Virus record (IMG/VR): IMGVR_UViG_3300028844_006278
Length of the DNA stretch: 64,000 bases
Reading direction: 5' to 3' (one strand)
Source: a virus
Shown here: positions 3,521 to 63,193 of the stretch, piece after piece
Numbering within the stretch: the first letter of the stretch is position 1
Layout of the letters: the number at the start of each line of letters is the position of its first letter
The notes under the pieces: generated by a model
What the model was told of the DNA's origin: nothing
Databases searched by the model: none
What the model saw: the letters and a program-made list of their open reading frames with translations, nothing else
Made by a program: the position numbers and the translations under genes

Positions 3521-3550
3521 TAGGAAATAGCATACGTGTGCTATTTCCTA
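3521..3550. promoter_or_regulatory. 30-bp near-perfect palindrome upstream of the recA-like gene
   Basis: TAGGAAATAGCATAC/GTGTGCTATTTCCTA, one mismatch, intergenic, just upstream of the GGAG RBS; core shared with other intergenic palindromes. Confidence 0.6.
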
Positions 3551-28796: not shown

Positions 28797-31700
28797 TTAT
28801 CCTATCGCTATGAGGTCTATAAACTCAGGTCCGTCTCCGCACCGTATTTGGTCCCTGTAGTATCTACCTTCCGGAGATGATCCACACACTTGGACGCCAT
28901 ACCATGACGTATCCAAGCTCGGACTAAGAAGCGTCATCTTCAGCTCCCATATACCTGTAGATGGCAGGTCTCCATCGGCCACGAACCGTACGTAGGTCTC
29001 GTCAAAGTACATCCGAGCATCTCTAGTGGGGCTATACTCTACTCTGTCCGCGGGCGTAGGATCTACTCCGCGGTCTGGGTTCCACTGATCGGTTCCGTTA
29101 AAGTAAAAGTCCCCTGACCAAGCATACAGAGAGGACTGGTCGAGGTCGTACGCTGAACACCCTGGAGCATTCAGCATAGTTCCTACATCTTGTACTGTCT
29201 CTAAGATGGAAGACGCGGAGCCGTCCCAGTACCCTATGCAGTTCGTACTGCTATCTGCCGGGGGAGCCGATCCGACGGTATGAGTAGAGGACGAGGAACT
29301 TGTCGGAGATACCTCGGAGGACGAGGAACTTGTCGGAGATACCGCGGAGGACGAGGAACTTGTCGGAGATACCGCGGAGGACGAGGAGGAGGAGTTAAAC
29401 ACATCGCAGGGTATATATCTCGCTAGACGCCTAGATGATATGGTCGAAGATGATGACACAAGAACAGAGCTCGAAGACGGACTAATAGAGGGCACAGATG
29501 AGCTGGACGGCAGTATCGACGAGCTGGACAGCATTATCGACGAGCTGGACAGTGTCACGGATGAGGACGAAGAGACGTCACATGGCTCATATACCGCGAT
29601 TAGCTGACTACTTACTGCGCTGCTACTGCTCTGCTCGCAGGTACGGCAGTCAGCGTAGGGGCCCGACACAAAGGTAGGAGTAAGTTCCAGAACAGTCCAC
29701 GTATCCGGACAGGATGTATCCATAGCACAGTCTGATATAGAGTAGCAGCGTCCGTCCAAGCTAAGAATATCTCCGACTTCCGCGTCGAATGGAATATTAG
29801 ACTTTGCCACAAATGTACACTTCTCCAACACGTCTGGAAAGCATGGAGAAAGCCTATAATACTCGCAGCAGTCGTCGCAATCCGCGTACGGACCTTTGAC
29901 CTCTGCCGGCTGAGGCAGTACTACGACAGTCGGCCATATGCAGTCTACCCCATCCCCTATGTATGTCTTCTTCCTACCCTTTATACGATAGCACTTAGGT
30001 CCGTAGTTCGGGCTCTCTGGATCTGTCTCAGGAAGCGTGATACTTATCGTATCTCCTATATCATACTCTACTGTGACGTAGGATTCGCAGATAAACCAGC
30101 AAGACTCCAGAATGTACGGGAAGCATGGCTCTAACTCCAGATATTCTGTGCATGGCGAGGACGAGGACGATGACGTAGCTCCTACACAATCTAAGCAATC
30201 CGCGTACGGACCTTTGACCTCTTCCGGTTGAGGCAGGACTTTGACTGTAGGCCATCTGCAGTCTGGCGCAGCCCCTATGTCTGTCTCCGTCCTATCCGCT
30301 ATACGATAGCACCTAGGGCTCTCCGGAGCCTCTCCAGGAAGCCTGATATTTATCGTATCTCCTATATCATACTCTACTGTGACGTAGGATTCGCAGATAA
30401 ACCAGCAAGACTCAAAAATGTGCGGGAAGCATGGCTCTAACCCCAGATATGCTGTGCATGACGGGAGCGATGGGGAGGAAATAGACGGCGCGCTGCTGCT
30501 GCTACTACTTATTACGTCAGAAGATGATGACGAGACCGTGTCGCACGGCTCGTATACAGCAATCACGGACACACTGCTCTCGCTAGTGCTTATGCTGCTC
30601 TCGCTGGTGCTTATGCTGCTCTCGCTGGTGCTTATGCTGCTCTCGCTGGTGCTTATGCTGCTCTCGCTGGTGCTTATGCTGCTCTCGCTGATGCTTATGC
30701 TGCTCTCGCTGGTGCTTATGCTGCTCTCAGAGGACACAGTAGAGCTAGACGACCCCGCACATGCTGAGATATACGCACGCGCCTCGTACGCGTAGCAATA
30801 CTCCCCTTCTACGCAGGGATGCGCAACGCCCGGCTCAGTACCTATACCGCACTGCTCTTCTCCGTACAGGCCTGCCGTCACTGACGGAAAATCATCCCCT
30901 CGTACGACCAGCCACCCGGTAGATAGGCCTGACCTATATGTAGCGAAGATGATCCACCAGTCCGGATCAGATACACCTCTATAGGCCGGGAAGGAGTTAA
31001 ATGTACCAACATGTGCGTACTGCTGATCTGCGCCTGCGTACTTGTCTGGGTTTTCGTTAACCGAAAACGACAGTGAGTAGCAGGTTTCGAACGCGCACCG
31101 TCGGGCGGCCGTAGATCCTGTAAGTGAAGACAGCTTGGCGGCACATGCTGAATAGTCCGAGTACGGGCCCTCGACCTGTAGTCCTCCCAGGGACGGCACT
31201 ATAAGCTCGCATCCGTCTCCTTGGCCCTGATAGTCGGCGACTTCGTCAAGTATCTCGTAGCACTCTGTTCCTGCTATAAACGTGTCTCCGATCTGAGCTC
31301 CGAGCGGCGCCTCGAATGCACTGATATAGAAGCACTGGTAAGGGGAGCCCCCTTCTATATCTGCTGGCAGAAGATTAGGAGGTCCACCATCGTCCTCGAA
31401 TGCCGGGTTGGATATTTTGAAGAAGGTCTCCTCGCACGGCAGATATAAGGGGTACACCTCTGCTGAGGACTCTACTAGCGGGACTGCCGTTATACACCAC
31501 GACGCGGTCAGAGAGTAATATCCAGGCGTCTGCTCGATCAGCGTGTGGTCGAACCCGCATAGGATTCCACCCTCCTCTTCCGTTATCTCAACAGCGCTGG
31601 AGGACAGGCGCAGGACCACTTCCGACACGTCCGCGCCCTCTCGATACAGGCATTCGTCGGTGAGTTCTCTGAAATCGCCTCCCGGACATCCTATGTAATG

Positions 31701-31892
31701 GCAGGGGCCGTGGACTTCCTGCCCGGAGGAGCTCGTAGGGCATCCCACGGCATCGTCAGGGCCGGTACTAGCAGGCAGGTTCTTAACCACAAAAATATCC
31801 GGATCCTCGCCCTCTCTAGTAGGGGAGACTTCCAGGACAGCCAAGTAGCTATGCACCGCCCGATTATACACCTTGTGTATAATCAGTTCCAC
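28797..31892 (-). CDS. Large Cys/Ser-rich modular protein (putative fibre/scaffold)
   Basis: Four extended Cys modules ending GPYxDCxxC or similar, three isolated (I/L)AxYxPCD motifs, Ser-rich repeats; GGAGG RBS before GTG. Confidence 0.75.
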   Translation of the reverse strand: MELIIHKVYNRAVHSYLAVLEVSPTREGEDPDIFVVKNLPASTGPDDAVGCPTSSSGQEVHGPCHYIGCPGGDFRELTDECLYREGADVSEVVLRLSSSAVEITEEEGGILCGFDHTLIEQTPGYYSLTASWCITAVPLVESSAEVYPLYLPCEETFFKISNPAFEDDGGPPNLLPADIEGGSPYQCFYISAFEAPLGAQIGDTFIAGTECYEILDEVADYQGQGDGCELIVPSLGGLQVEGPYSDYSACAAKLSSLTGSTAARRCAFETCYSLSFSVNENPDKYAGADQQYAHVGTFNSFPAYRGVSDPDWWIIFATYRSGLSTGWLVVRGDDFPSVTAGLYGEEQCGIGTEPGVAHPCVEGEYCYAYEARAYISACAGSSSSTVSSESSISTSESSISISESSISTSESSISTSESSISTSESSISTSESSISTSESSVSVIAVYEPCDTVSSSSSDVISSSSSSAPSISSPSLPSCTAYLGLEPCFPHIFESCWFICESYVTVEYDIGDTINIRLPGEAPESPRCYRIADRTETDIGAAPDCRWPTVKVLPQPEEVKGPYADCLDCVGATSSSSSSPCTEYLELEPCFPYILESCWFICESYVTVEYDIGDTISITLPETDPESPNYGPKCYRIKGRKKTYIGDGVDCIWPTVVVLPQPAEVKGPYADCDDCCEYYRLSPCFPDVLEKCTFVAKSNIPFDAEVGDILSLDGRCYSISDCAMDTSCPDTWTVLELTPTFVSGPYADCRTCEQSSSSAVSSQLIAVYEPCDVSSSSSVTLSSSSIMLSSSSILPSSSSVPSISPSSSSVLVSSSSTISSRRLARYIPCDVFNSSSSSSAVSPTSSSSSAVSPTSSSSSEVSPTSSSSSTHTVGSAPPADSSTNCIGYWDGSASSILETVQDVGTMLNAPGCSAYDLDQSSLYAWSGDFYFNGTDQWNPDRGVDPTPADRVEYSPTRDARMYFDETYVRFVADGDLPSTGIWELKMTLLSPSLDTSWYGVQVCGSSPEGRYYRDQIRCGDGPEFIDLIAIG
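29287..29387 (-). repeat. 30-bp coding repeat x3 (SSSSxVSPTS)
   Basis: gaggacgaggaacttgtcggagatacc three times. Confidence 0.85.
30044..30413. repeat. Direct repeat from a recent module duplication (64 identical nt, 306-nt offset)
   Basis: 30044-30107 is identical to 30350-30413. Confidence 0.9.
30574..30728 (-). repeat. 21-bp coding tandem repeat (SSISTSE x7)
   Basis: gctgctctcgctggtgcttat units. Confidence 0.92.
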
Positions 31893-31937
31893 TTATACAT
31901 CCTCCTGCTCATCGTGAGTATCTGTCCGCCGAGGACG

Positions 31938-32237
31938 CTAGGGTAAGATAAACATATCGCCGTCTCCTAGAATATACCCAGGATCTGTGATATTAACCAC
32001 TTCGATGTTCGATAACGACGACCGCTGGAGCCGGACGTTAGTCTTTATATGATCGATAGCCACAGGCAGTACCCGCTCCATTGCTACCTTAGATCGGAAA
32101 AGCATTGCGATATTGTCTGACCGGTACAGGTCTCCCAGGTCTGCTGAGAGCGGGTGAACCATGAGGTCAGTAGGTGATGCGATGGATATCAGGACCTTTG
32201 TCGGATCTATGTCTGGGAGCTCTGGATCTTCATTCAT
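31938..32237 (-). CDS. Hypothetical protein, paralog of the C-terminal half of 34162-34548
   Basis: IASPTDL..HP...LYR...MLFRS...HIKTNV aligns with IASYADI..YP...FFR...LIFQS...QIKNTV. Confidence 0.65.
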   Translation of the reverse strand: MNEDPELPDIDPTKVLISIASPTDLMVHPLSADLGDLYRSDNIAMLFRSKVAMERVLPVAIDHIKTNVRLQRSSLSNIEVVNITDPGYILGDGDMFILP

Positions 32238-32299
32238 ATCAGTACCTACTGGTGTGACCTAGCATACGTATTCTGTTTTCAGCGACATATAAAAGTGAC

Positions 32300-34147
32300 T
32301 CACGTATGGACAATCACGCACTGTATGTCCCCTCGCTGCCTAGTAACATACAAGAGTTCGCCCCAGATCTCTCCGGATATGTGGATCTTATCCCCGGCAG
32401 CGAGTTGCCAAACCGGTCCGGATAGGGGGAAGTACTCGGCCGCTCTAGTCGGATCCAATGCCTGGGCAGGGCCGTCTGAGCCTACAGGTGGCCGAAAGAT
32501 CTGGTAGGGCAGGGCATTAAGTATATGCTCATCACCATCCGATAATCGGAGGCCCAGCTTATAATACTCGCTTATGTTCGCTCGAGAGGTGCCGCTCACT
32601 CGTTTAACCCCGACGGCAGGCCGGCCGGACTCTGATAGGTAGGACGAGACTACCCTATGGCCCTCCTGCAGATCTTCGCACGAATATGGACCACCTAGAG
32701 GAGCAGGCACTGTGCAGACAGTAGTCCCCGGAAGTAGCGGTATGTCCTCAGACTCCGGTATAGCGATTGTAGGGCCTTCATACCGAATGTCCGTGTACGT
32801 CGATAGATTATGCACTAGGAATCCGTTGGCGAATAAGGTTAGGTAATTTGCGACGTCCCATACAGCCACAGACTCTTCAGGTCCTTGGTGCTCATCTATA
32901 CTTAAGATAGGATGCCATGCCCTATCCTTAGAGTACAACTCATCCTCTGCTCGTAGAGGCAGTATCTCCGATAGATATGGGTACTCCGCTGTGGCCTTGG
33001 CTGCATCTATGGCCTTCCAAGCTTCCTCTCCGGGAGCGGATCTAGCATATACGGGCTGAGTGTCTGAGATCTCGAGAGTACCTCCGGATAATGTCCGGAT
33101 CTGCCAGTACGCAAGCACGGATGATTTACAGGTACCTCTAATGGGCTGGAAATCTAGAGCGCCGTCGTACTCTGAGTATGAGAATACAGTATCTCCAGAG
33201 GCTAGATCCGATATAGGAACAACTCCCCGATCGCCGGTTAGTACGGTAGTAGAGCGGGATACAAGGGATCCCTTATTGTGTAAGAGCACCCCATCTGCGA
33301 AGTAGTTCCTATTGTCCTCTACCGCCCATAAATTATATACCTGCTTCTGCCCGGGATATTCCGATACAGAGGATATCTGATCCCACTCTCCACTCTTTGT
33401 TAGGACAAAGTCCCCTGCCGACATCTTCAGCAGTCGTCGTAGATACGGGTGCGATTTACGGGATCGGGAGGGGCAGTAGGATGCCCACCCTATCCCCGAT
33501 CCGGGCTTACGGACATACACTGGCTGGGAGGTGGTGATCCCCAGAGACGTCCCAGACTGTAGATTCAGCGTGATGTACCGGTCAACTAGCGGAGCATCTA
33601 TGCCGAGGACTCGTTTACCTTCGACCTGCTCGCTTACCTCGTTGTAGGAGAGCACAATGTCGCCTACCTGCACATCTTCGACTTTTATCTCCCCTCCTCC
33701 TGGAACTGATATTAAGGTGCTGGCCACTACGCATCCTCCTGGAATATCGTCCGAGGACGAGGACCCCGCCCCAACCTGCAACGTGCACAGATCCTGCATA
33801 AATACATGGGAGGCATTACGTACATACGGCATAGATATCTGCACAGGCGCGTCGAGCGTTACCCCTCGTACAGAGGATACGACAATATCTCCGTCTTCGC
33901 TGCGGAGAACGGCGCCCTCTACCAGTCCTCGATCCTTCTGGATAAAGCCAGAGGTGTTCTCAGCAGAGAAGAACTTGGTAGACGCTGAGAATACGTGGAT
34001 GTCATTTATTACGACAAATTCACGTACTGTTGTCTGAACTGCTTTGAATACCTTCCTCGTCTCAATATCTAGCTCCGGGGACAGCGTCGCTATCTCCATA
34101 CCCCTCTTCCAGGTCGGTAAAGCATCAAGCACGTCTTGATCCGTCAT
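32300..34147 (-). CDS. Tandem Hint (intein-like/BIL) domain protein
   Basis: aa139-291 CVVASTLI...VEDVQVGDIVLS...VYNL...NYFADGVLLHN; aa~295-447 ending LFANGFLVHN; degenerate copies at aa~10-125 and ~470-615. Confidence 0.88.
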   Translation of the reverse strand: MTDQDVLDALPTWKRGMEIATLSPELDIETRKVFKAVQTTVREFVVINDIHVFSASTKFFSAENTSGFIQKDRGLVEGAVLRSEDGDIVVSSVRGVTLDAPVQISMPYVRNASHVFMQDLCTLQVGAGSSSSDDIPGGCVVASTLISVPGGGEIKVEDVQVGDIVLSYNEVSEQVEGKRVLGIDAPLVDRYITLNLQSGTSLGITTSQPVYVRKPGSGIGWASYCPSRSRKSHPYLRRLLKMSAGDFVLTKSGEWDQISSVSEYPGQKQVYNLWAVEDNRNYFADGVLLHNKGSLVSRSTTVLTGDRGVVPISDLASGDTVFSYSEYDGALDFQPIRGTCKSSVLAYWQIRTLSGGTLEISDTQPVYARSAPGEEAWKAIDAAKATAEYPYLSEILPLRAEDELYSKDRAWHPILSIDEHQGPEESVAVWDVANYLTLFANGFLVHNLSTYTDIRYEGPTIAIPESEDIPLLPGTTVCTVPAPLGGPYSCEDLQEGHRVVSSYLSESGRPAVGVKRVSGTSRANISEYYKLGLRLSDGDEHILNALPYQIFRPPVGSDGPAQALDPTRAAEYFPLSGPVWQLAAGDKIHISGEIWGELLYVTRQRGDIQCVIVHT

Positions 34148-34161
34148 AATAGTATGCTCCT

Positions 34162-34548
34162 TTAGCAGTCGTTAACTATTACTTCTACAGCCTCTTCGCC
34201 GTTAAGTCGAACCAGATCCTCTACTGTATTTTTAATCTGCCCTTCTATGAGATCCCACGTATCTGAGAGGTGCGGGAGACTCTGGAAGATGAGATCTACG
34301 TAATACTTACGGAAGAACGGAGAATCCTCGCCGGGATCATTCTCTGGATAGTCGGCTATATCGGCATAGGACGCTATGTGTACGAAGAGGTCTGCGAGTA
34401 CATCATAGGAAGGAACGGAGGGAAGTCTCTGGTACACGAAGACCGTCGGCGGAAGGTTATCGGAAGTCTCTGAGACCCAGACACGCATCCTATGTCGACT
34501 ATCCTCCTCTAGTGTCACCCTCCTTGAGATCTGTATGTAGCTGCTCAT
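34162..34548 (-). CDS. Hypothetical (probably virion) protein
   Basis: 128 aa in operon; halves paralogous to two downstream genes. Confidence 0.75.
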   Translation of the reverse strand: MSSYIQISRRVTLEEDSRHRMRVWVSETSDNLPPTVFVYQRLPSVPSYDVLADLFVHIASYADIADYPENDPGEDSPFFRKYYVDLIFQSLPHLSDTWDLIEGQIKNTVEDLVRLNGEEAVEVIVNDC

Positions 34549-34551
34549 ATT

Positions 34552-34821
34552 CTAGACTGCTCCGCTGAGATAGAGGGCCTCTCCGTGTAGTTTCTCCGAC
34601 GAGCCCTGCGTCGGCACAGGTATTATGCCGGATTTGATGGCCGCCTTAAGAAGATCTAGACCTATTGTCGGATATCCTAACTCCTGGATTTCAGATGCCC
34701 CCGGCAGGCCTTGCTCCGCCAACTCATCTGTAGGATGCTCGTCTCCCTTTATGAGGGAGGCAAGGATACAGCTGGCTGCCGCCAATCCGTCACTATTGTT
34801 AAAAGTACCGGGAGCAATCAT
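34552..34821 (-). CDS. Hypothetical protein
   Basis: 89 aa, overlaps the upstream stop. Confidence 0.6.
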   Translation of the reverse strand: MIAPGTFNNSDGLAAASCILASLIKGDEHPTDELAEQGLPGASEIQELGYPTIGLDLLKAAIKSGIIPVPTQGSSEKLHGEALYLSGAV

Positions 34822-42332: not shown

Positions 42333-43313
42333 CTAGACCTCCGAACCGAGTACAAGCAGCTTATTCTGTATGCTGGAGATAGCCGAACTGGTAGAGTCGT
42401 AGAACGCTTTGAGCGTGGCGTATCGCTGGTTAAGGTTAGCGATGGATGCTAAGATATTGTCTATGTTAGTGTCCTCATCGCAACAAGGTCTGGCACATGG
42501 ATTAGAGATGACCACCGAGTGGCTGCCCTCCGCCTCTATGGCGGTACAGTCTCCTCCTAGGATGTTAAAATTCCTATTCGGATCCGGCAGCATGCCGTTT
42601 ATCGTGCGGATAGGTCTGCCGTACAGGTCGGTGAGTGCCGCTAGTACGTCCTCGTCGTTAGATAGCTGTAGGGTGGAGCCGGCGTTTAGGGAGGCAGATA
42701 CTGTGACAACCGTCTCGGTGTCCCCTCCGTCTAATGTCCGGGTATCTACGTCCAACGATACATTGGCCCCTTCCTTTAGCTTCACGTTGCCTGTGTATAG
42801 TCGGTTGTTTATCGATATGTACTGGACATTTAGAAGGCCCTTGGACACACGGGTCTGCAGTATCTTGGTGGACTTATCCGTCGTACTCTGGTCGAAGCTC
42901 CACGATCCGAGACTACGGACAGTGTCGACACACTCTCCTATAGTGATCTGCCCTGTCATGTAGTAGAGCGGGGAGAGCGCGCCTCCCCCTGTATACTCGT
43001 AAGGCGTGAAGTCATACGTGGAATGAGGATCTGCGGATGTGTCGATGCTGCGGAATACCCCTAGAGGGGATGTGATAAGCGCGTCATCATATCCTACCTC
43101 TATGTCGATGAAGTTTTTACGTACAACGACTCTCTCGATATAGAACTGACTCTTGTCCACCTCCGGAAGGCACGGCACACATAGGAATATGTCTGAGATA
43201 AGTGAACTCGGCATCGTAAACGACCCAGTAGCGTCCACTGCCCCGTTATCGTCTTCTATGGGGTAGGAGCGATGCAGGTTCTCGTCCAAGAATTCTAGTA
43301 AAATAGCAGACAT
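42333..43313 (-). CDS. Putative tail fibre/baseplate-associated protein (same family)
   Basis: NLHRSYPI, LISDIFL, LKEGANVSL, IRTINGMLPD, CARPCC plus coiled coil. Confidence 0.6.
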   Translation of the reverse strand: MSAILLEFLDENLHRSYPIEDDNGAVDATGSFTMPSSLISDIFLCVPCLPEVDKSQFYIERVVVRKNFIDIEVGYDDALITSPLGVFRSIDTSADPHSTYDFTPYEYTGGGALSPLYYMTGQITIGECVDTVRSLGSWSFDQSTTDKSTKILQTRVSKGLLNVQYISINNRLYTGNVKLKEGANVSLDVDTRTLDGGDTETVVTVSASLNAGSTLQLSNDEDVLAALTDLYGRPIRTINGMLPDPNRNFNILGGDCTAIEAEGSHSVVISNPCARPCCDEDTNIDNILASIANLNQRYATLKAFYDSTSSAISSIQNKLLVLGSEV

Positions 43314-43327
43314 ATTCTATTTCTCCT

Positions 43328-47157: not shown

Positions 47158-48729
47158 CTAGGACCCCTCGGACACAGCGATGTTTACATCAGACGGGAAG
47201 CAGAAGAACTGGCAGTTCTCGAAGGATATTCCGGTATCCGTGGGAGGCTTTACGTAGTTCTGGCTGCTTGTGTACGCCGTACTGCCGTCTGGGAGATACA
47301 AGGTGGCCCGAAGGTTAATCGGCATCCTCACGGTCCCCTCAGGAGACAGTCTCTGACATGCGCTCGCCAAATCTGACGTGTACAGCGCCTCGATTCCAAT
47401 TGGCTTTCCGTTGATAACATCAGCCACAGCTTGTTGGAACTCGGCAGCCTCTGGAACGATAACTCCGGATCTGTGGGATATGTCGATGTCGGCCTCTATA
47501 ACTATAGGGATCACCGCCTTTACCACGTGATCGAACACCATGCTCCGGACGCCCTCGCCGTTTAGGAAGTCCTGTGTCTCGGAGACTCCCGGCATGTACA
47601 GAACTCGCGCAGTGAAGATAGCCTCAGTAGCGCTGGGATCTCCGATGTCTGCCTCGAATGCTACTGTCAGTGTCTGGTACTTGCTATATCGAGCCTGGGC
47701 TGCCGATTCGACTAGCGGCCAGCCTCCGGTAGCGGAGTAGCCGACCGTGCTCTGTAGGCCGGCGTTGATGAGCTGGTTGTCGTAGGTAATCTGAGTAACC
47801 GCGTACGCTCCCGCAAAGGAGGCGGCAGGTACTTCCAGTTCCCACGAACCGTCGTCTTGTTTGTGCGCTGTGATTGGGGCATCCTGCGCGACCGGCACTA
47901 CTGCGGTCCGGATATAGGCATCTACGCGTCCGCCGGAGCTTATTCCTCCGTTATTGACCGAGTCCCGGGTCTGCAAGGCATCTCCCATTCCGAATACTCT
48001 AGCGTCCTGTACGATAAGGTCCTCGTTGCTGACTAGGAACTGCTGGATGTTATCCTTGCCTGTAAGGACCTTCGCATTCACACCTAGGCGAGCCCTATCT
48101 AGCAGCTGAGCGTTTGTCTCCTCGGCAGAGCCTCCTGTAAAGGTGGATCCTATCTCGACGGACGAGACATTAGAGTCGGAGACGTCGGACGTACAAGGGA
48201 GGCCGGCCGACAGTGTTGACGTTAGAGGCTCTACCGTGCTGGCTTGGATGGAGAACACCTTACGGCCGCCACCTAGATCGACGAACGGCACGTACGTTAC
48301 AGTATCTGTGTCCTCGTACACCGTGGTTCCCGCCACACCGACATACGACTTCAATGGTCTGATAGAGACGCCGCTACATATAAATGAAGCTGAGGCCGGG
48401 ATGTAGATGTTGTTGTTCCCGTTAGTGTAGATGTTGAGGGATCCCGAGGCGGACGATCCCTCCTTCCGGGTGACATTGTAGTTAGACAGGAGGTTATCCA
48501 CTAACTCGTCGTCCGGGGAGTCTGAGTTAAGGACCTGTGCTAGGGAGTAGTTGTCCCGCACGGTCTCTAGGTCTACGTCCTGCTTTGCAAAGTAATAGGA
48601 CGCAGGCTTGATCAGCAGCTCGAACAACACAGTGCCGGTAGACACGTCTATTGTCGGATAGGTCTCCGTTAGTAGCTGCTGGAGCTCTGTTGCTATTCTA
48701 TCCTGCTTCTCTGAGAAAGACTCATCCAT
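47158..48729 (-). CDS. Baseplate J-like (gp6-like) wedge protein
   Basis: DVSTGTVLFELLIKP, DNLLSNYNVTRKEGSSASG, FTGGSAEETNAQLLDRA, GRVDAYI. Confidence 0.85.
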   Translation of the reverse strand: MDESFSEKQDRIATELQQLLTETYPTIDVSTGTVLFELLIKPASYYFAKQDVDLETVRDNYSLAQVLNSDSPDDELVDNLLSNYNVTRKEGSSASGSLNIYTNGNNNIYIPASASFICSGVSIRPLKSYVGVAGTTVYEDTDTVTYVPFVDLGGGRKVFSIQASTVEPLTSTLSAGLPCTSDVSDSNVSSVEIGSTFTGGSAEETNAQLLDRARLGVNAKVLTGKDNIQQFLVSNEDLIVQDARVFGMGDALQTRDSVNNGGISSGGRVDAYIRTAVVPVAQDAPITAHKQDDGSWELEVPAASFAGAYAVTQITYDNQLINAGLQSTVGYSATGGWPLVESAAQARYSKYQTLTVAFEADIGDPSATEAIFTARVLYMPGVSETQDFLNGEGVRSMVFDHVVKAVIPIVIEADIDISHRSGVIVPEAAEFQQAVADVINGKPIGIEALYTSDLASACQRLSPEGTVRMPINLRATLYLPDGSTAYTSSQNYVKPPTDTGISFENCQFFCFPSDVNIAVSEGS

Positions 48730-49153: not shown

Positions 49154-49572
49154 CCTGCCAGCCTCACGTCCCCTACAAGGGAGTTGGTGTTATCCAAGTA
49201 CTCCGGATTTGCCCGAGTACCTATCTCCGGTAGTAGTGCCTGTAGCACTCCTCCTGCATCTATGGCCCGGCGCTTACTGGTGAATATGCCTGCCCACTTA
49301 CTTATACGGTTACATCGTCCGCTCTCGTATGCACGCTGATAGTTCGCAAGAAAGGCGTTCGCCTCTAGCGCATTAATCAGAGTAGCCTGCCGGACAGAGG
49401 CTGTGTTTGCCAGAATGGAGATAAGCTCTCCGATATTCTGAGACAGCCACTGCGGAGTAAGCGCGACCTGCAGAGCTTCAAACGTGTCGTCCGATGCATC
49501 TAGACCCAGGATCTGGTCGATCTCGGCCGAATACTGGTCCGCTAGCAGTCTGCATAGCTCCCGTGGTGTCAT
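49150..49572 (-). CDS. Hypothetical protein
   Basis: 140 aa, coupled overlaps. Confidence 0.7.
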   Translation of the reverse strand: MTPRELCRLLADQYSAEIDQILGLDASDDTFEALQVALTPQWLSQNIGELISILANTASVRQATLINALEANAFLANYQRAYESGRCNRISKWAGIFTSKRRAIDAGGVLQALLPEIGTRANPEYLDNTNSLVGDVRLAG

Positions 49573-50285
49573 GCCTTAACCTCCTCTAACTTCTGAACGA
49601 TCTTAGATACCCGCTGACTGATAGCTGGCTGAGATATGCCTAGCTTTGTAGCGATCTCCTTCTTACTTAGACGCGCTGCTCCGTTATATCCCGTAGTCCA
49701 CTCGAAGATCTTCTTATCTTTCTCTCCGAGATCGAAATACACGTAGTCGACCCATATATCTGAGGCGCTCTTCGACTTGCCAGCTAGATCACCTTTATCG
49801 GAGAGCGCTCGAGAGGTCGGAGCCTCCTTCAGTCTGGTTCTGTTTATCCGTTCCACAGATATGGACAATCCGTCCGCGATCGCTGTGTCGCTGGGTTCGC
49901 GTCCGTGAATGTCGGTATACTCTCGCGTGAACTCGTCCACTTGTCTGCGGTCGGTATGGGTCTGCTCTGGGAAGTGTAGGGCGTTCTGTCGCTTTGCCTT
50001 GATTCGGTTCAGGCGGCGTAGATGGTTGTAGACGTGCGTATTGAGAGCCGCGCCTCTGGTGGGATCGTAGCTCTTTATAGCATCTACAGCGAGGACACGC
50101 GCCTTTGTACGATACGCCTTATCTCCGCCTGCGTGCGCGGTAAGGCCGGACTTAACGGCGGGCTCTACCTCTTTTAGCACCGCATATAGATTATCGTCTG
50201 TAGGTGACTTCTTCCATTTCTCGAACGACTCCGGACCTGTTAGCTCGGATGTCTTCCTAAATTGTCCTTTGAGGCCGGGATGCAT
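49569..50285 (-). CDS. Phage-encoded sigma-70 family factor (FliA/SigF-like, regions 2-4)
   Basis: AIKSYDPTRGAALNTHV (region 2), GREPSDTAIADGLSIS (region 3), LSKKEIATKLGISQPAISQR (region 4 HTH). Confidence 0.85.
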   Translation of the reverse strand: MHPGLKGQFRKTSELTGPESFEKWKKSPTDDNLYAVLKEVEPAVKSGLTAHAGGDKAYRTKARVLAVDAIKSYDPTRGAALNTHVYNHLRRLNRIKAKRQNALHFPEQTHTDRRQVDEFTREYTDIHGREPSDTAIADGLSISVERINRTRLKEAPTSRALSDKGDLAGKSKSASDIWVDYVYFDLGEKDKKIFEWTTGYNGAARLSKKEIATKLGISQPAISQRVSKIVQKLEEVKA

Positions 50286-52636: not shown

Positions 52637-52658
52637 ATCTAGCATACGTATGCTAGAT
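52637..52658. promoter_or_regulatory. Perfect 22-bp palindrome
   Basis: ATCTAGCATACGTATGCTAGAT at a gene junction. Confidence 0.6.
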
Positions 52659-63177: not shown

Positions 63178-63193
63178 TAGAATACGTATTCTA
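63178..63193. promoter_or_regulatory. Perfect 16-bp palindrome
   Basis: TAGAATACGTATTCTA between a stop and the next start. Confidence 0.55.

Follow-up and report, generated by a model that had tools for sequence, protein, structure and literature searches.

How does a phage come to carry one intact copy of a small protein domain beside a second copy whose two halves occupy separate genes in the reverse order, and do those halves still come together? This question is raised by a locus in IMG/VR virus record IMGVR_UViG_3300028844_006278, of which a stretch of 64,000 nucleotides (nt), hereafter the window, was analysed. Three open reading frames (ORFs) are involved. One encodes a 128-amino acid (aa) protein. 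The other two, a 99-aa ORF and the beginning of a 1031-aa ORF, carry the C-terminal half (C-half) and the N-terminal half (N-half) of a paralog of that protein. An earlier reading made from the letters alone (the sequence-only reading) had placed three ORFs at these positions with TAG and TAA stop codons separating them, and both the positions and the stops are borne out. The main features are as follows.

34162-34548, minus strand: 128-aa protein, the intact, compact and linker-free paralog of the two-part domain.
31938-32237, minus strand: 99-aa protein, the free-standing C-half and proposed 'socket', with its own ATG and a TAG stop.
31893-31937, minus strand: spacer between the C-half and N-half genes, with TAG, variable sequence, the Shine-Dalgarno sequence GCAGGAGGA, TAA and then GTG.
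28797-31892, minus strand: 1031-aa protein, with a GTG start and an in-frame TAA immediately before it.
31758-31892, minus strand: N-half and proposed three-strand 'plug' (residues 1-45 of the 1031-aa protein), which shares homology with the N-terminus of a fused family found in relatives.
28797-31757, minus strand: cargo of the 1031-aa protein, made of Cys-containing modules and Ser-rich stalks that follow the N-half.

The best overall explanation for this arrangement, to which we assign a probability of roughly 60%, is that one paralog of the domain was split and re-ordered, and that the resulting plug and socket reassemble the domain in trans.

Relatives carry both halves in one chain

A phmmer search with the 99-aa protein recovered 29 representatives, most of which are proteins of 130-460 aa that match at their C-terminal end. 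Expectation values (E) for these C-half family matches range from 1.9e-21 to 1e-4. At least 20 metagenomic clusters share a fused architecture, in which an N-half of ~40 residues, a Ser-rich linker and the C-half follow one another in one chain (alignment A4, which includes P0013, P0025 and P0036). Fused forms are present at L008:1880-2347, at L004 (an ORF ending at 2328), at L018 and at L019, together with ~16 further representatives. The linker of this family spans ~10-130 residues and at times holds an inserted domain (Cys-rich in P0017, large in P0034).

Both pieces in the window match this family. Residues 1-40 of the 1031-aa protein match the whole length of the N-half motif (M.L.I.K.YNR..HSYLAVLEV....EDP.IFVVKD), and the 99-aa ORF matches the C-half motif (LVSIASLTDL..P......LYRA.TVAMLFRS...M......V..NARLQR). 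The N-terminus of the 1031-aa protein is 33-70% identical to the fused N-halves and 96% identical to that of the close relative L001, and the 99-aa ORF is 28-47% identical to the fused C-halves outside the close relatives. When hidden Markov models (HMMs) of each half were run against the phage's own 165-kb genome, the sole match of the N-half model was the N-terminus of the 1031-aa protein (4.3e-23), and the C-half model matched the 99-aa ORF (8.4e-34) and the 128-aa ORF (1.9e-4). By these models, a single N-half and a single free C-half are present in the genome.

The fused relatives and the profile matches within the phage's own genome show that the start of the 1031-aa protein and the 99-aa ORF are two halves of a protein that is normally made as one chain. 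The fusion of both halves in N-to-C order in relatives is the decisive evidence for the swapped gene order that the sequence-only reading had proposed. The window pieces are like the fused family in that they represent both of its halves by sequence and share its synteny downstream of the 128-aa paralog. Specifically, the fused gene sits slightly downstream of the 128-aa homolog at the loci that carry both (L008, L004, L018 and L019). They are unlike it in that the halves are separate genes in reversed order and that the N-half is joined to a large cargo. Neither the window nor L001/L002, L017 or L020 encodes both halves in a single N-before-C polypeptide with a Ser-rich linker.

Two further observations concern members of this family. 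P0032 (149 aa) lacks the Ser linker and repeats the third-strand motif at its C-terminus (DPKIFVVTDK), which may hint at strand exchange between subunits. Also, a conserved C-terminal tail, DPxxGxDxDxxYxF[R/P], is present in the split and fused paralogs and absent from the 128-aa paralog. This tail forms the C-terminus of the 99-aa protein (31938-31985, minus strand), corresponds to columns ~290-307 of alignment A4, and is a candidate part that could bind the virion or a partner.

Relationship to the 128-aa paralog

It had been proposed that the two ends of the 128-aa protein align with the two pieces, its C-terminal half with the 99-aa ORF and its N-terminal half with the start of the 1031-aa protein. 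Comparison of the window sequences, taken alone, is weak and leaves the case undecided. BLASTP aligned the 128-aa protein with the N-terminus of the 1031-aa protein over 20 residues (E 0.01) and gave no match between the 128-aa and 99-aa proteins. Smith-Waterman alignments evaluated with shuffles gave p 0.0005 for the former pair and p 0.09 for the latter.

The 128-aa protein has ten homologs (45-100% identity), and a family profile of 10 sequences was aligned with the profiles of the two halves. With the C-half profile, hhalign reported a probability of 90.8% and E 1.2e-6 over 68 columns, in the very register that had been proposed. With the N-half profile, it reported E 0.034 over 18 columns. 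When the 128-aa family was aligned with the full fused family at a relaxed threshold, the two were collinear across both halves, with the linker entering at residues ~47-51. Reciprocal HMM matches connect the 128-aa family with the split and fused family over several loci. The proposed profile comparison is therefore significant for the C-half, and the N-half correspondence, weak when taken alone, falls into line with it at the relaxed threshold. With the fused relatives, these comparisons confirm a split, swapped-order paralogy between the 128-aa protein and the 99-aa and 1031-aa pieces.

Structure models were generated with AlphaFold2 (AF2) for the 128-aa protein (predicted local distance difference test score, pLDDT, 77; predicted template modelling score, pTM, 0.66) and for the fused protein P0036 (pLDDT 80, pTM 0.73). 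The two models have an identical order of elements: three strands, a junction with pLDDT below 50, and a strand-helix-strand-strand-helix-strand unit. In the 128-aa model, the strands comprise residues 3-13, 19-28 and 37-40, and a disordered loop (residues 45-54) precedes the second unit. The linker of the fused forms enters at this disordered loop.

The P0036 and 128-aa models draw common weak neighbours from the PDB. The best Z-score in a VIA-align wide search was 5.5 for the fused model (root-mean-square deviation 3.0-3.6, 67 residues) and 4.5 for the 128-aa model. The neighbours, namely a de novo binder, T7 Gp1.2, sugar-kinase subdomains and TTHA1013, are scattered three-strand/helix arrangements, none of which is convincing. 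Foldseek returned nothing at E <= 0.001 from the PDB or from BFVD, shape and feature searches of the ESM Atlas returned template modelling (TM) scores below 0.5 by query or unnamed clusters, and a profile search of PDB sequences gave a best E of 0.48. Pfam and PHROG gave no match for the 128-aa, 99-aa or 1031-aa proteins or for 15 fused homologs. Likewise, tblastn searches of GenBank phages with the 128-aa protein and P0013 as queries, and scans of IMG/VR with the 128-aa protein, the 99-aa protein, P0013 and a degenerate DNA pattern for the N-half, gave no match. A word-indexed search for longer proteins that begin with the N-half recovered only the window's own protein and one close relative. 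Because no Pfam, PHROG or PDB relative was found, this two-part domain family counts as undescribed, its fold included.

Conservation and origin of the split

A C-half gene followed by a gene for the N-half and its cargo is found in the window, in L001/L002, in L017 and in L020, each time with a stop codon, a Shine-Dalgarno sequence and GTG between the genes. In the window, the 99-aa and 1031-aa ORFs are in the same frame, with TAG, 13 sense codons and TAA between them. In L001 and L017, the spacer differs from that of the window in sequence and in the relative frame of the two ORFs, which is shifted. Yet the stop, the Shine-Dalgarno sequence and the GTG are kept, and separate translation is therefore favoured over read-through.

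A tree of C-halves with the 128-aa paralogs as its root unites the four permuted rows in one clade (100/100) that is nested among the fused forms, and the swapped arrangement is for this reason the derived one. A long branch (1.01 changes per column) forms the stem of the permuted clade. The sister of this clade is L016 (96/89). At L016:291-909, a frame change in the Ser linker leaves two ORFs that are in the normal order and overlap by 8 nt, one of 77 aa for the N-half and one of 130 aa for the C-half. This frame change is found in two assemblies that possibly come from one sample, and the cut may be an intermediate of fission or a mere indel.

Synonymous sites are saturated among the permuted relatives. 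Nonsynonymous divergence (dN) in these relatives is 0.02-0.03 for the N-half, the lowest value in the neighbourhood, 0.10-0.13 for the C-half and 0.09-0.10 for the 128-aa gene. The 150 codons that follow the N-half (residues 46-195 of the 1031-aa protein) have a dN of 0.16-0.35. Across relatives with saturated synonymous sites, the ratio of dN to synonymous divergence (dN/dS) lies at about 0.02-0.06. This pattern indicates that both halves have been under strong purifying selection since the split, and by these comparisons no piece of the neighbourhood is better conserved than the 40-residue tag.

The protein that carries the tag varies among the permuted forms. In L001:12646-15938 and L020:1401-2932, the counterpart of the 1031-aa protein consists of two genes, one encoding an N-half-tagged protein of 177-199 aa and the other, a large scaffold gene, overlapping it by ATGA. 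In the window and in L017, the tag and the large scaffold lie in one ORF.

Proposed reassembly in trans

The sequence-only reading had gone on to suggest that the 99-aa protein completes the fold in trans. For a co-folding test, the 99-aa protein and residues 1-45 of the 1031-aa protein were each supplied with its alignment. The median score was 0.56 (runs 0.62, 0.56 and 0.43) and the best control scored 0.01; the pLDDT of the partner was at least 67 and contacts agreed between runs by at least 85%. The tool itself grades this result as 'weak support'. Its mark is reached by 58 of 80 solved complexes and by 2 of 110 mismatched pairs, and scores of 0.60 or lower were obtained by only 7 of the 80 solved complexes and by both of the mismatches that passed.

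Complementation in trans is the best reading of these data because the halves are fused in relatives, both are under selection, the phage's genome contains just one of each, and the co-fold score lies above that of the control. It builds on the homology of the pieces, on the split with its conservation and derived status, and on the selection on both halves, all documented above. The 99-aa protein is probably the socket and the first 40 residues of the 1031-aa protein probably the plug.

The following course of events would account for the locus. The domain, of ~125 residues, comprises three N-terminal strands, a tolerant loop and a C-terminal part with the order strand-helix-strand-strand-helix-strand, and has two paralogs in the window. 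The first is intact (128 aa), and the second is, in most relatives, one chain with a Ser-rich linker in the loop. In the lineage of this phage, the second paralog has been cut at the loop and its halves re-ordered, so that the C-half became the free 99-aa protein and the N-half became the first ~40 residues of a 1031-aa appendage protein with Ser-rich segments and Cys modules. The three-strand plug of the 1031-aa protein would then dock non-covalently onto the 99-aa socket, and the domain, rebuilt from two chains, would take the place held by the fused paralog in the tail or baseplate appendage cluster of the relatives. Display would thereby shift from a loop to a chain end, and any cargo that bears the 40-residue tag could therefore be attached. 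We infer that the pair would anchor the 1031-aa protein to the virion.

Several points weigh against this reading. The pairing of the 99-aa protein with the N-half is a prediction that passed the co-folding test weakly, and, by construction, two halves of one split gene can be expected to pass a test of this kind. The models suggest that the C-half, with its beta-alpha-beta-beta-alpha-beta layout, may fold alone without the plug. Since this layout may be a fold of its own, 'docks onto' is possibly a truer description than 'completes the fold'; the proposal made from the letters alone is supported in part. By itself, the tie between the N-half and the 128-aa family (E 0.034) is marginal. The N-half tag is not always found on the large scaffold, since two of the four permuted relatives (L001 and L020) place it on the 177-199-aa protein. 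Finally, no fold or family match places any of these proteins in the virion, and the tail or baseplate assignment comes from gene context only.

The most serious rival explanation accepts the split and holds that the halves no longer pair, the N-half tag binding something else, such as the 128-aa paralog or a baseplate protein, and the 99-aa protein serving as a lone small structural subunit. This would agree with the self-contained appearance of the C-half unit in the models, with the long stem of the permuted clade, which implies considerable change of the C-half after the split, with the constant presence of the 128-aa gene nearby and with the weak co-fold pass. However, it leaves unexplained why the halves occur one-to-one in the genome, why the two genes are adjacent and have been kept together in all four permuted relatives, why purifying selection on both halves is strong and why the co-fold score (0.56) stands so far above the controls (0.01). 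We consider this rival unlikely, although it is the one that competes most seriously with pairing.

Far less probable is a single circularly permuted chain, produced by read-through or frameshifting across the spacer, that joins the C-half to the N-half and its cargo. The shared frame of the two ORFs in the window, with TAG, 13 sense codons and TAA between them, would permit such a product. Against it, read-through would need to pass two stops, there was no sign of a suppressor or an alternative code, and the Shine-Dalgarno sequence and GTG before the N-half gene are conserved in L001 and L017 despite the different frames there. On account of this difference in relative frame, a read-through fusion was rejected. 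Least probable of all is that the resemblance to the 128-aa protein arose by chance, or that the split pieces are decaying remnants of a broken gene. The pairwise similarity within the window is indeed weak, but the profile and HMM evidence with its reciprocal matches, the identical order of secondary structure elements in the models, the existence of fused homologs and the low dN/dS at saturated synonymous sites all contradict this idea, and as far as sequence analysis allows it is already refuted.

There is also a wider picture, which we hold tentatively and at slightly less than even odds. The locus would be a natural self-assembling tag-and-socket system derived from the fission of a single domain, in which a portable N-terminal tag of 40 residues attaches large appendage proteins to the virion, with all stages of its origin possibly alive in relatives. 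The stages that may be visible are the compact paralog, the fused form with its display loop, the in-order linker cut (L016) and the permuted form.

Genomic setting

The virus record that holds the window is complete, spans 164,893 bp and has direct terminal repeats. Nearly all genes between 24 kb and 63 kb of the window lie on the minus strand, and family matches are rare. The protein encoded at 47158-48729, ~13 kb upstream, has a Baseplate_J-like match below the cut-off, and 49569-50285 encodes a sigma-factor-like protein. Downstream genes encode large proteins rich in Ser and containing Cys modules, with a matrixin domain, as well as a Hint-domain protein and others. Because of this gene context, in particular the Baseplate_J match below the cut-off, the region is taken to be a cluster of tail or baseplate appendage genes in an uncultured large phage. 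Three further features adjoin the genes discussed above.

34552-34821, minus strand: 89-aa gene directly upstream of the 128-aa gene, with a counterpart of 81-90 aa in every relative examined and no family match.
32300-34147, minus strand: 615-aa protein with a Hint domain, which is outside the split domain and occupies the variable slot that separates the 128-aa gene from the paralog.
32238-32299, minus strand: spacer upstream of the C-half gene, with the palindromic motif GAATACGTATGCTA at 32260-32273, kept in L001 and L017.

The 615-aa protein has Pfam matches to Hint and Intein_splicing that are below the cut-offs, and its gene diverges very fast (dN 0.45-0.56 among the permuted relatives). 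The slot that it occupies is variable. It holds a 615-aa multi-Hint protein in the window and close relatives and a protein of 223-261 aa in L004 and L008, and it is empty in L016 and L019. A role for the Hint gene in joining the two halves was considered and rejected because the slot carries other genes or none in relatives.

The palindromic motif near TAGCATACGTATGCTA has 11 matches in the window (at most 2 mismatches), compared with 0.42 expected. The matches lie mostly at the 5′ ends of genes; at several minus-strand genes, the 99-aa gene among them, they cover the start codon or lie 0-30 nt upstream of it. In addition to the site at 32260-32273 (minus strand), they occur near 3528-3543, 43304-43317, 52640-52655 and 63178-63193. 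This motif is a candidate phage promoter or operator.

Comparison with known systems

A literature search for a described precedent in phages, with the terms used, found none. If the tag-and-socket picture is true, phage appendages would have a new principle of assembly in this locus, which would also document an intermediate of the fission and re-ordering route to circular permutation. It would be a clear natural case in which a cut within a domain makes a docking device of two chains out of a fold of one chain. Unsplit, fused and possibly half-way states survive in related phages, so that the path of evolution is open to direct reading. The arrangement suggests how the very large modular appendage proteins of uncultured large phages attach and swap, only the 40-residue tag being kept. 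For protein engineering, the 40-residue plug and the 99-residue socket would be a candidate orthogonal tag pair, if they have evolved to assemble in trans.

As far as the tools used here tell, the two-part domain belongs by sequence or fold to none of the known families with which it was compared. Three reports on branched systems of receptor-binding proteins (RBPs) of Klebsiella and Ackermannviridae phages describe a conserved N-terminal docking peptide of RBP2 that binds the T4gp10-like branching domain of RBP1 (PMC6872550, PMC13352976, PMC11414711). As in the systems portrayed there, a short conserved N-terminal tag on a variable appendage protein would plug into a small conserved partner, so that cargo can be swapped, although the pairing in the present case is predicted. 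Unlike the docking pairs in those accounts, tag and socket here demonstrably stem from a single ancestral domain, of which each is one half, and the partner is no domain of another fibre but a free 99-aa protein. No Pfam or PHROG match to a T4gp10-like domain was found and no phage baseplate chain was among the structural neighbours, but such lists may still miss this family.

In the donor-strand complementation of chaperone-usher pili, one chain supplies an N-terminal strand segment by which the sheet of another is completed or extended, the pilins being incomplete immunoglobulin (Ig)-like folds. The system proposed here differs in that three strands would be donated to an alpha/beta domain in a phage setting, rather than one strand to an Ig-like pilin. 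Specifically, the predicted layout has three strands followed by an alpha/beta unit, in contrast to the all-beta Ig fold. None of the scanned proteins matched a chaperone or usher family. Split inteins and engineered split-protein tag pairs are also gene products that reassemble a fold from fragments. Unlike split inteins, the two halves have no Hint or intein similarity and give no sign of splicing or covalent bonding; Pfam matches to Hint, Intein or PT-HINT are absent from the 99-aa, 128-aa and 1031-aa proteins and are confined to the separate 615-aa gene.

Circular permutation by a fission-fusion route is known from split or permuted DNA methyltransferases and transhydrogenases. The present case is similar in that a single domain is cut and its parts appear in swapped order. 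It differs in that the cut falls within a domain of ~125 residues, the parts remain separate genes, and one of them has been captured as a tag by a different protein. By analogy of function, the docking peptides of branched RBPs are the nearest described system and donor-strand complementation is a more distant one. In evolutionary terms, the arrangement fits the fission and re-ordering route to circular permutation.

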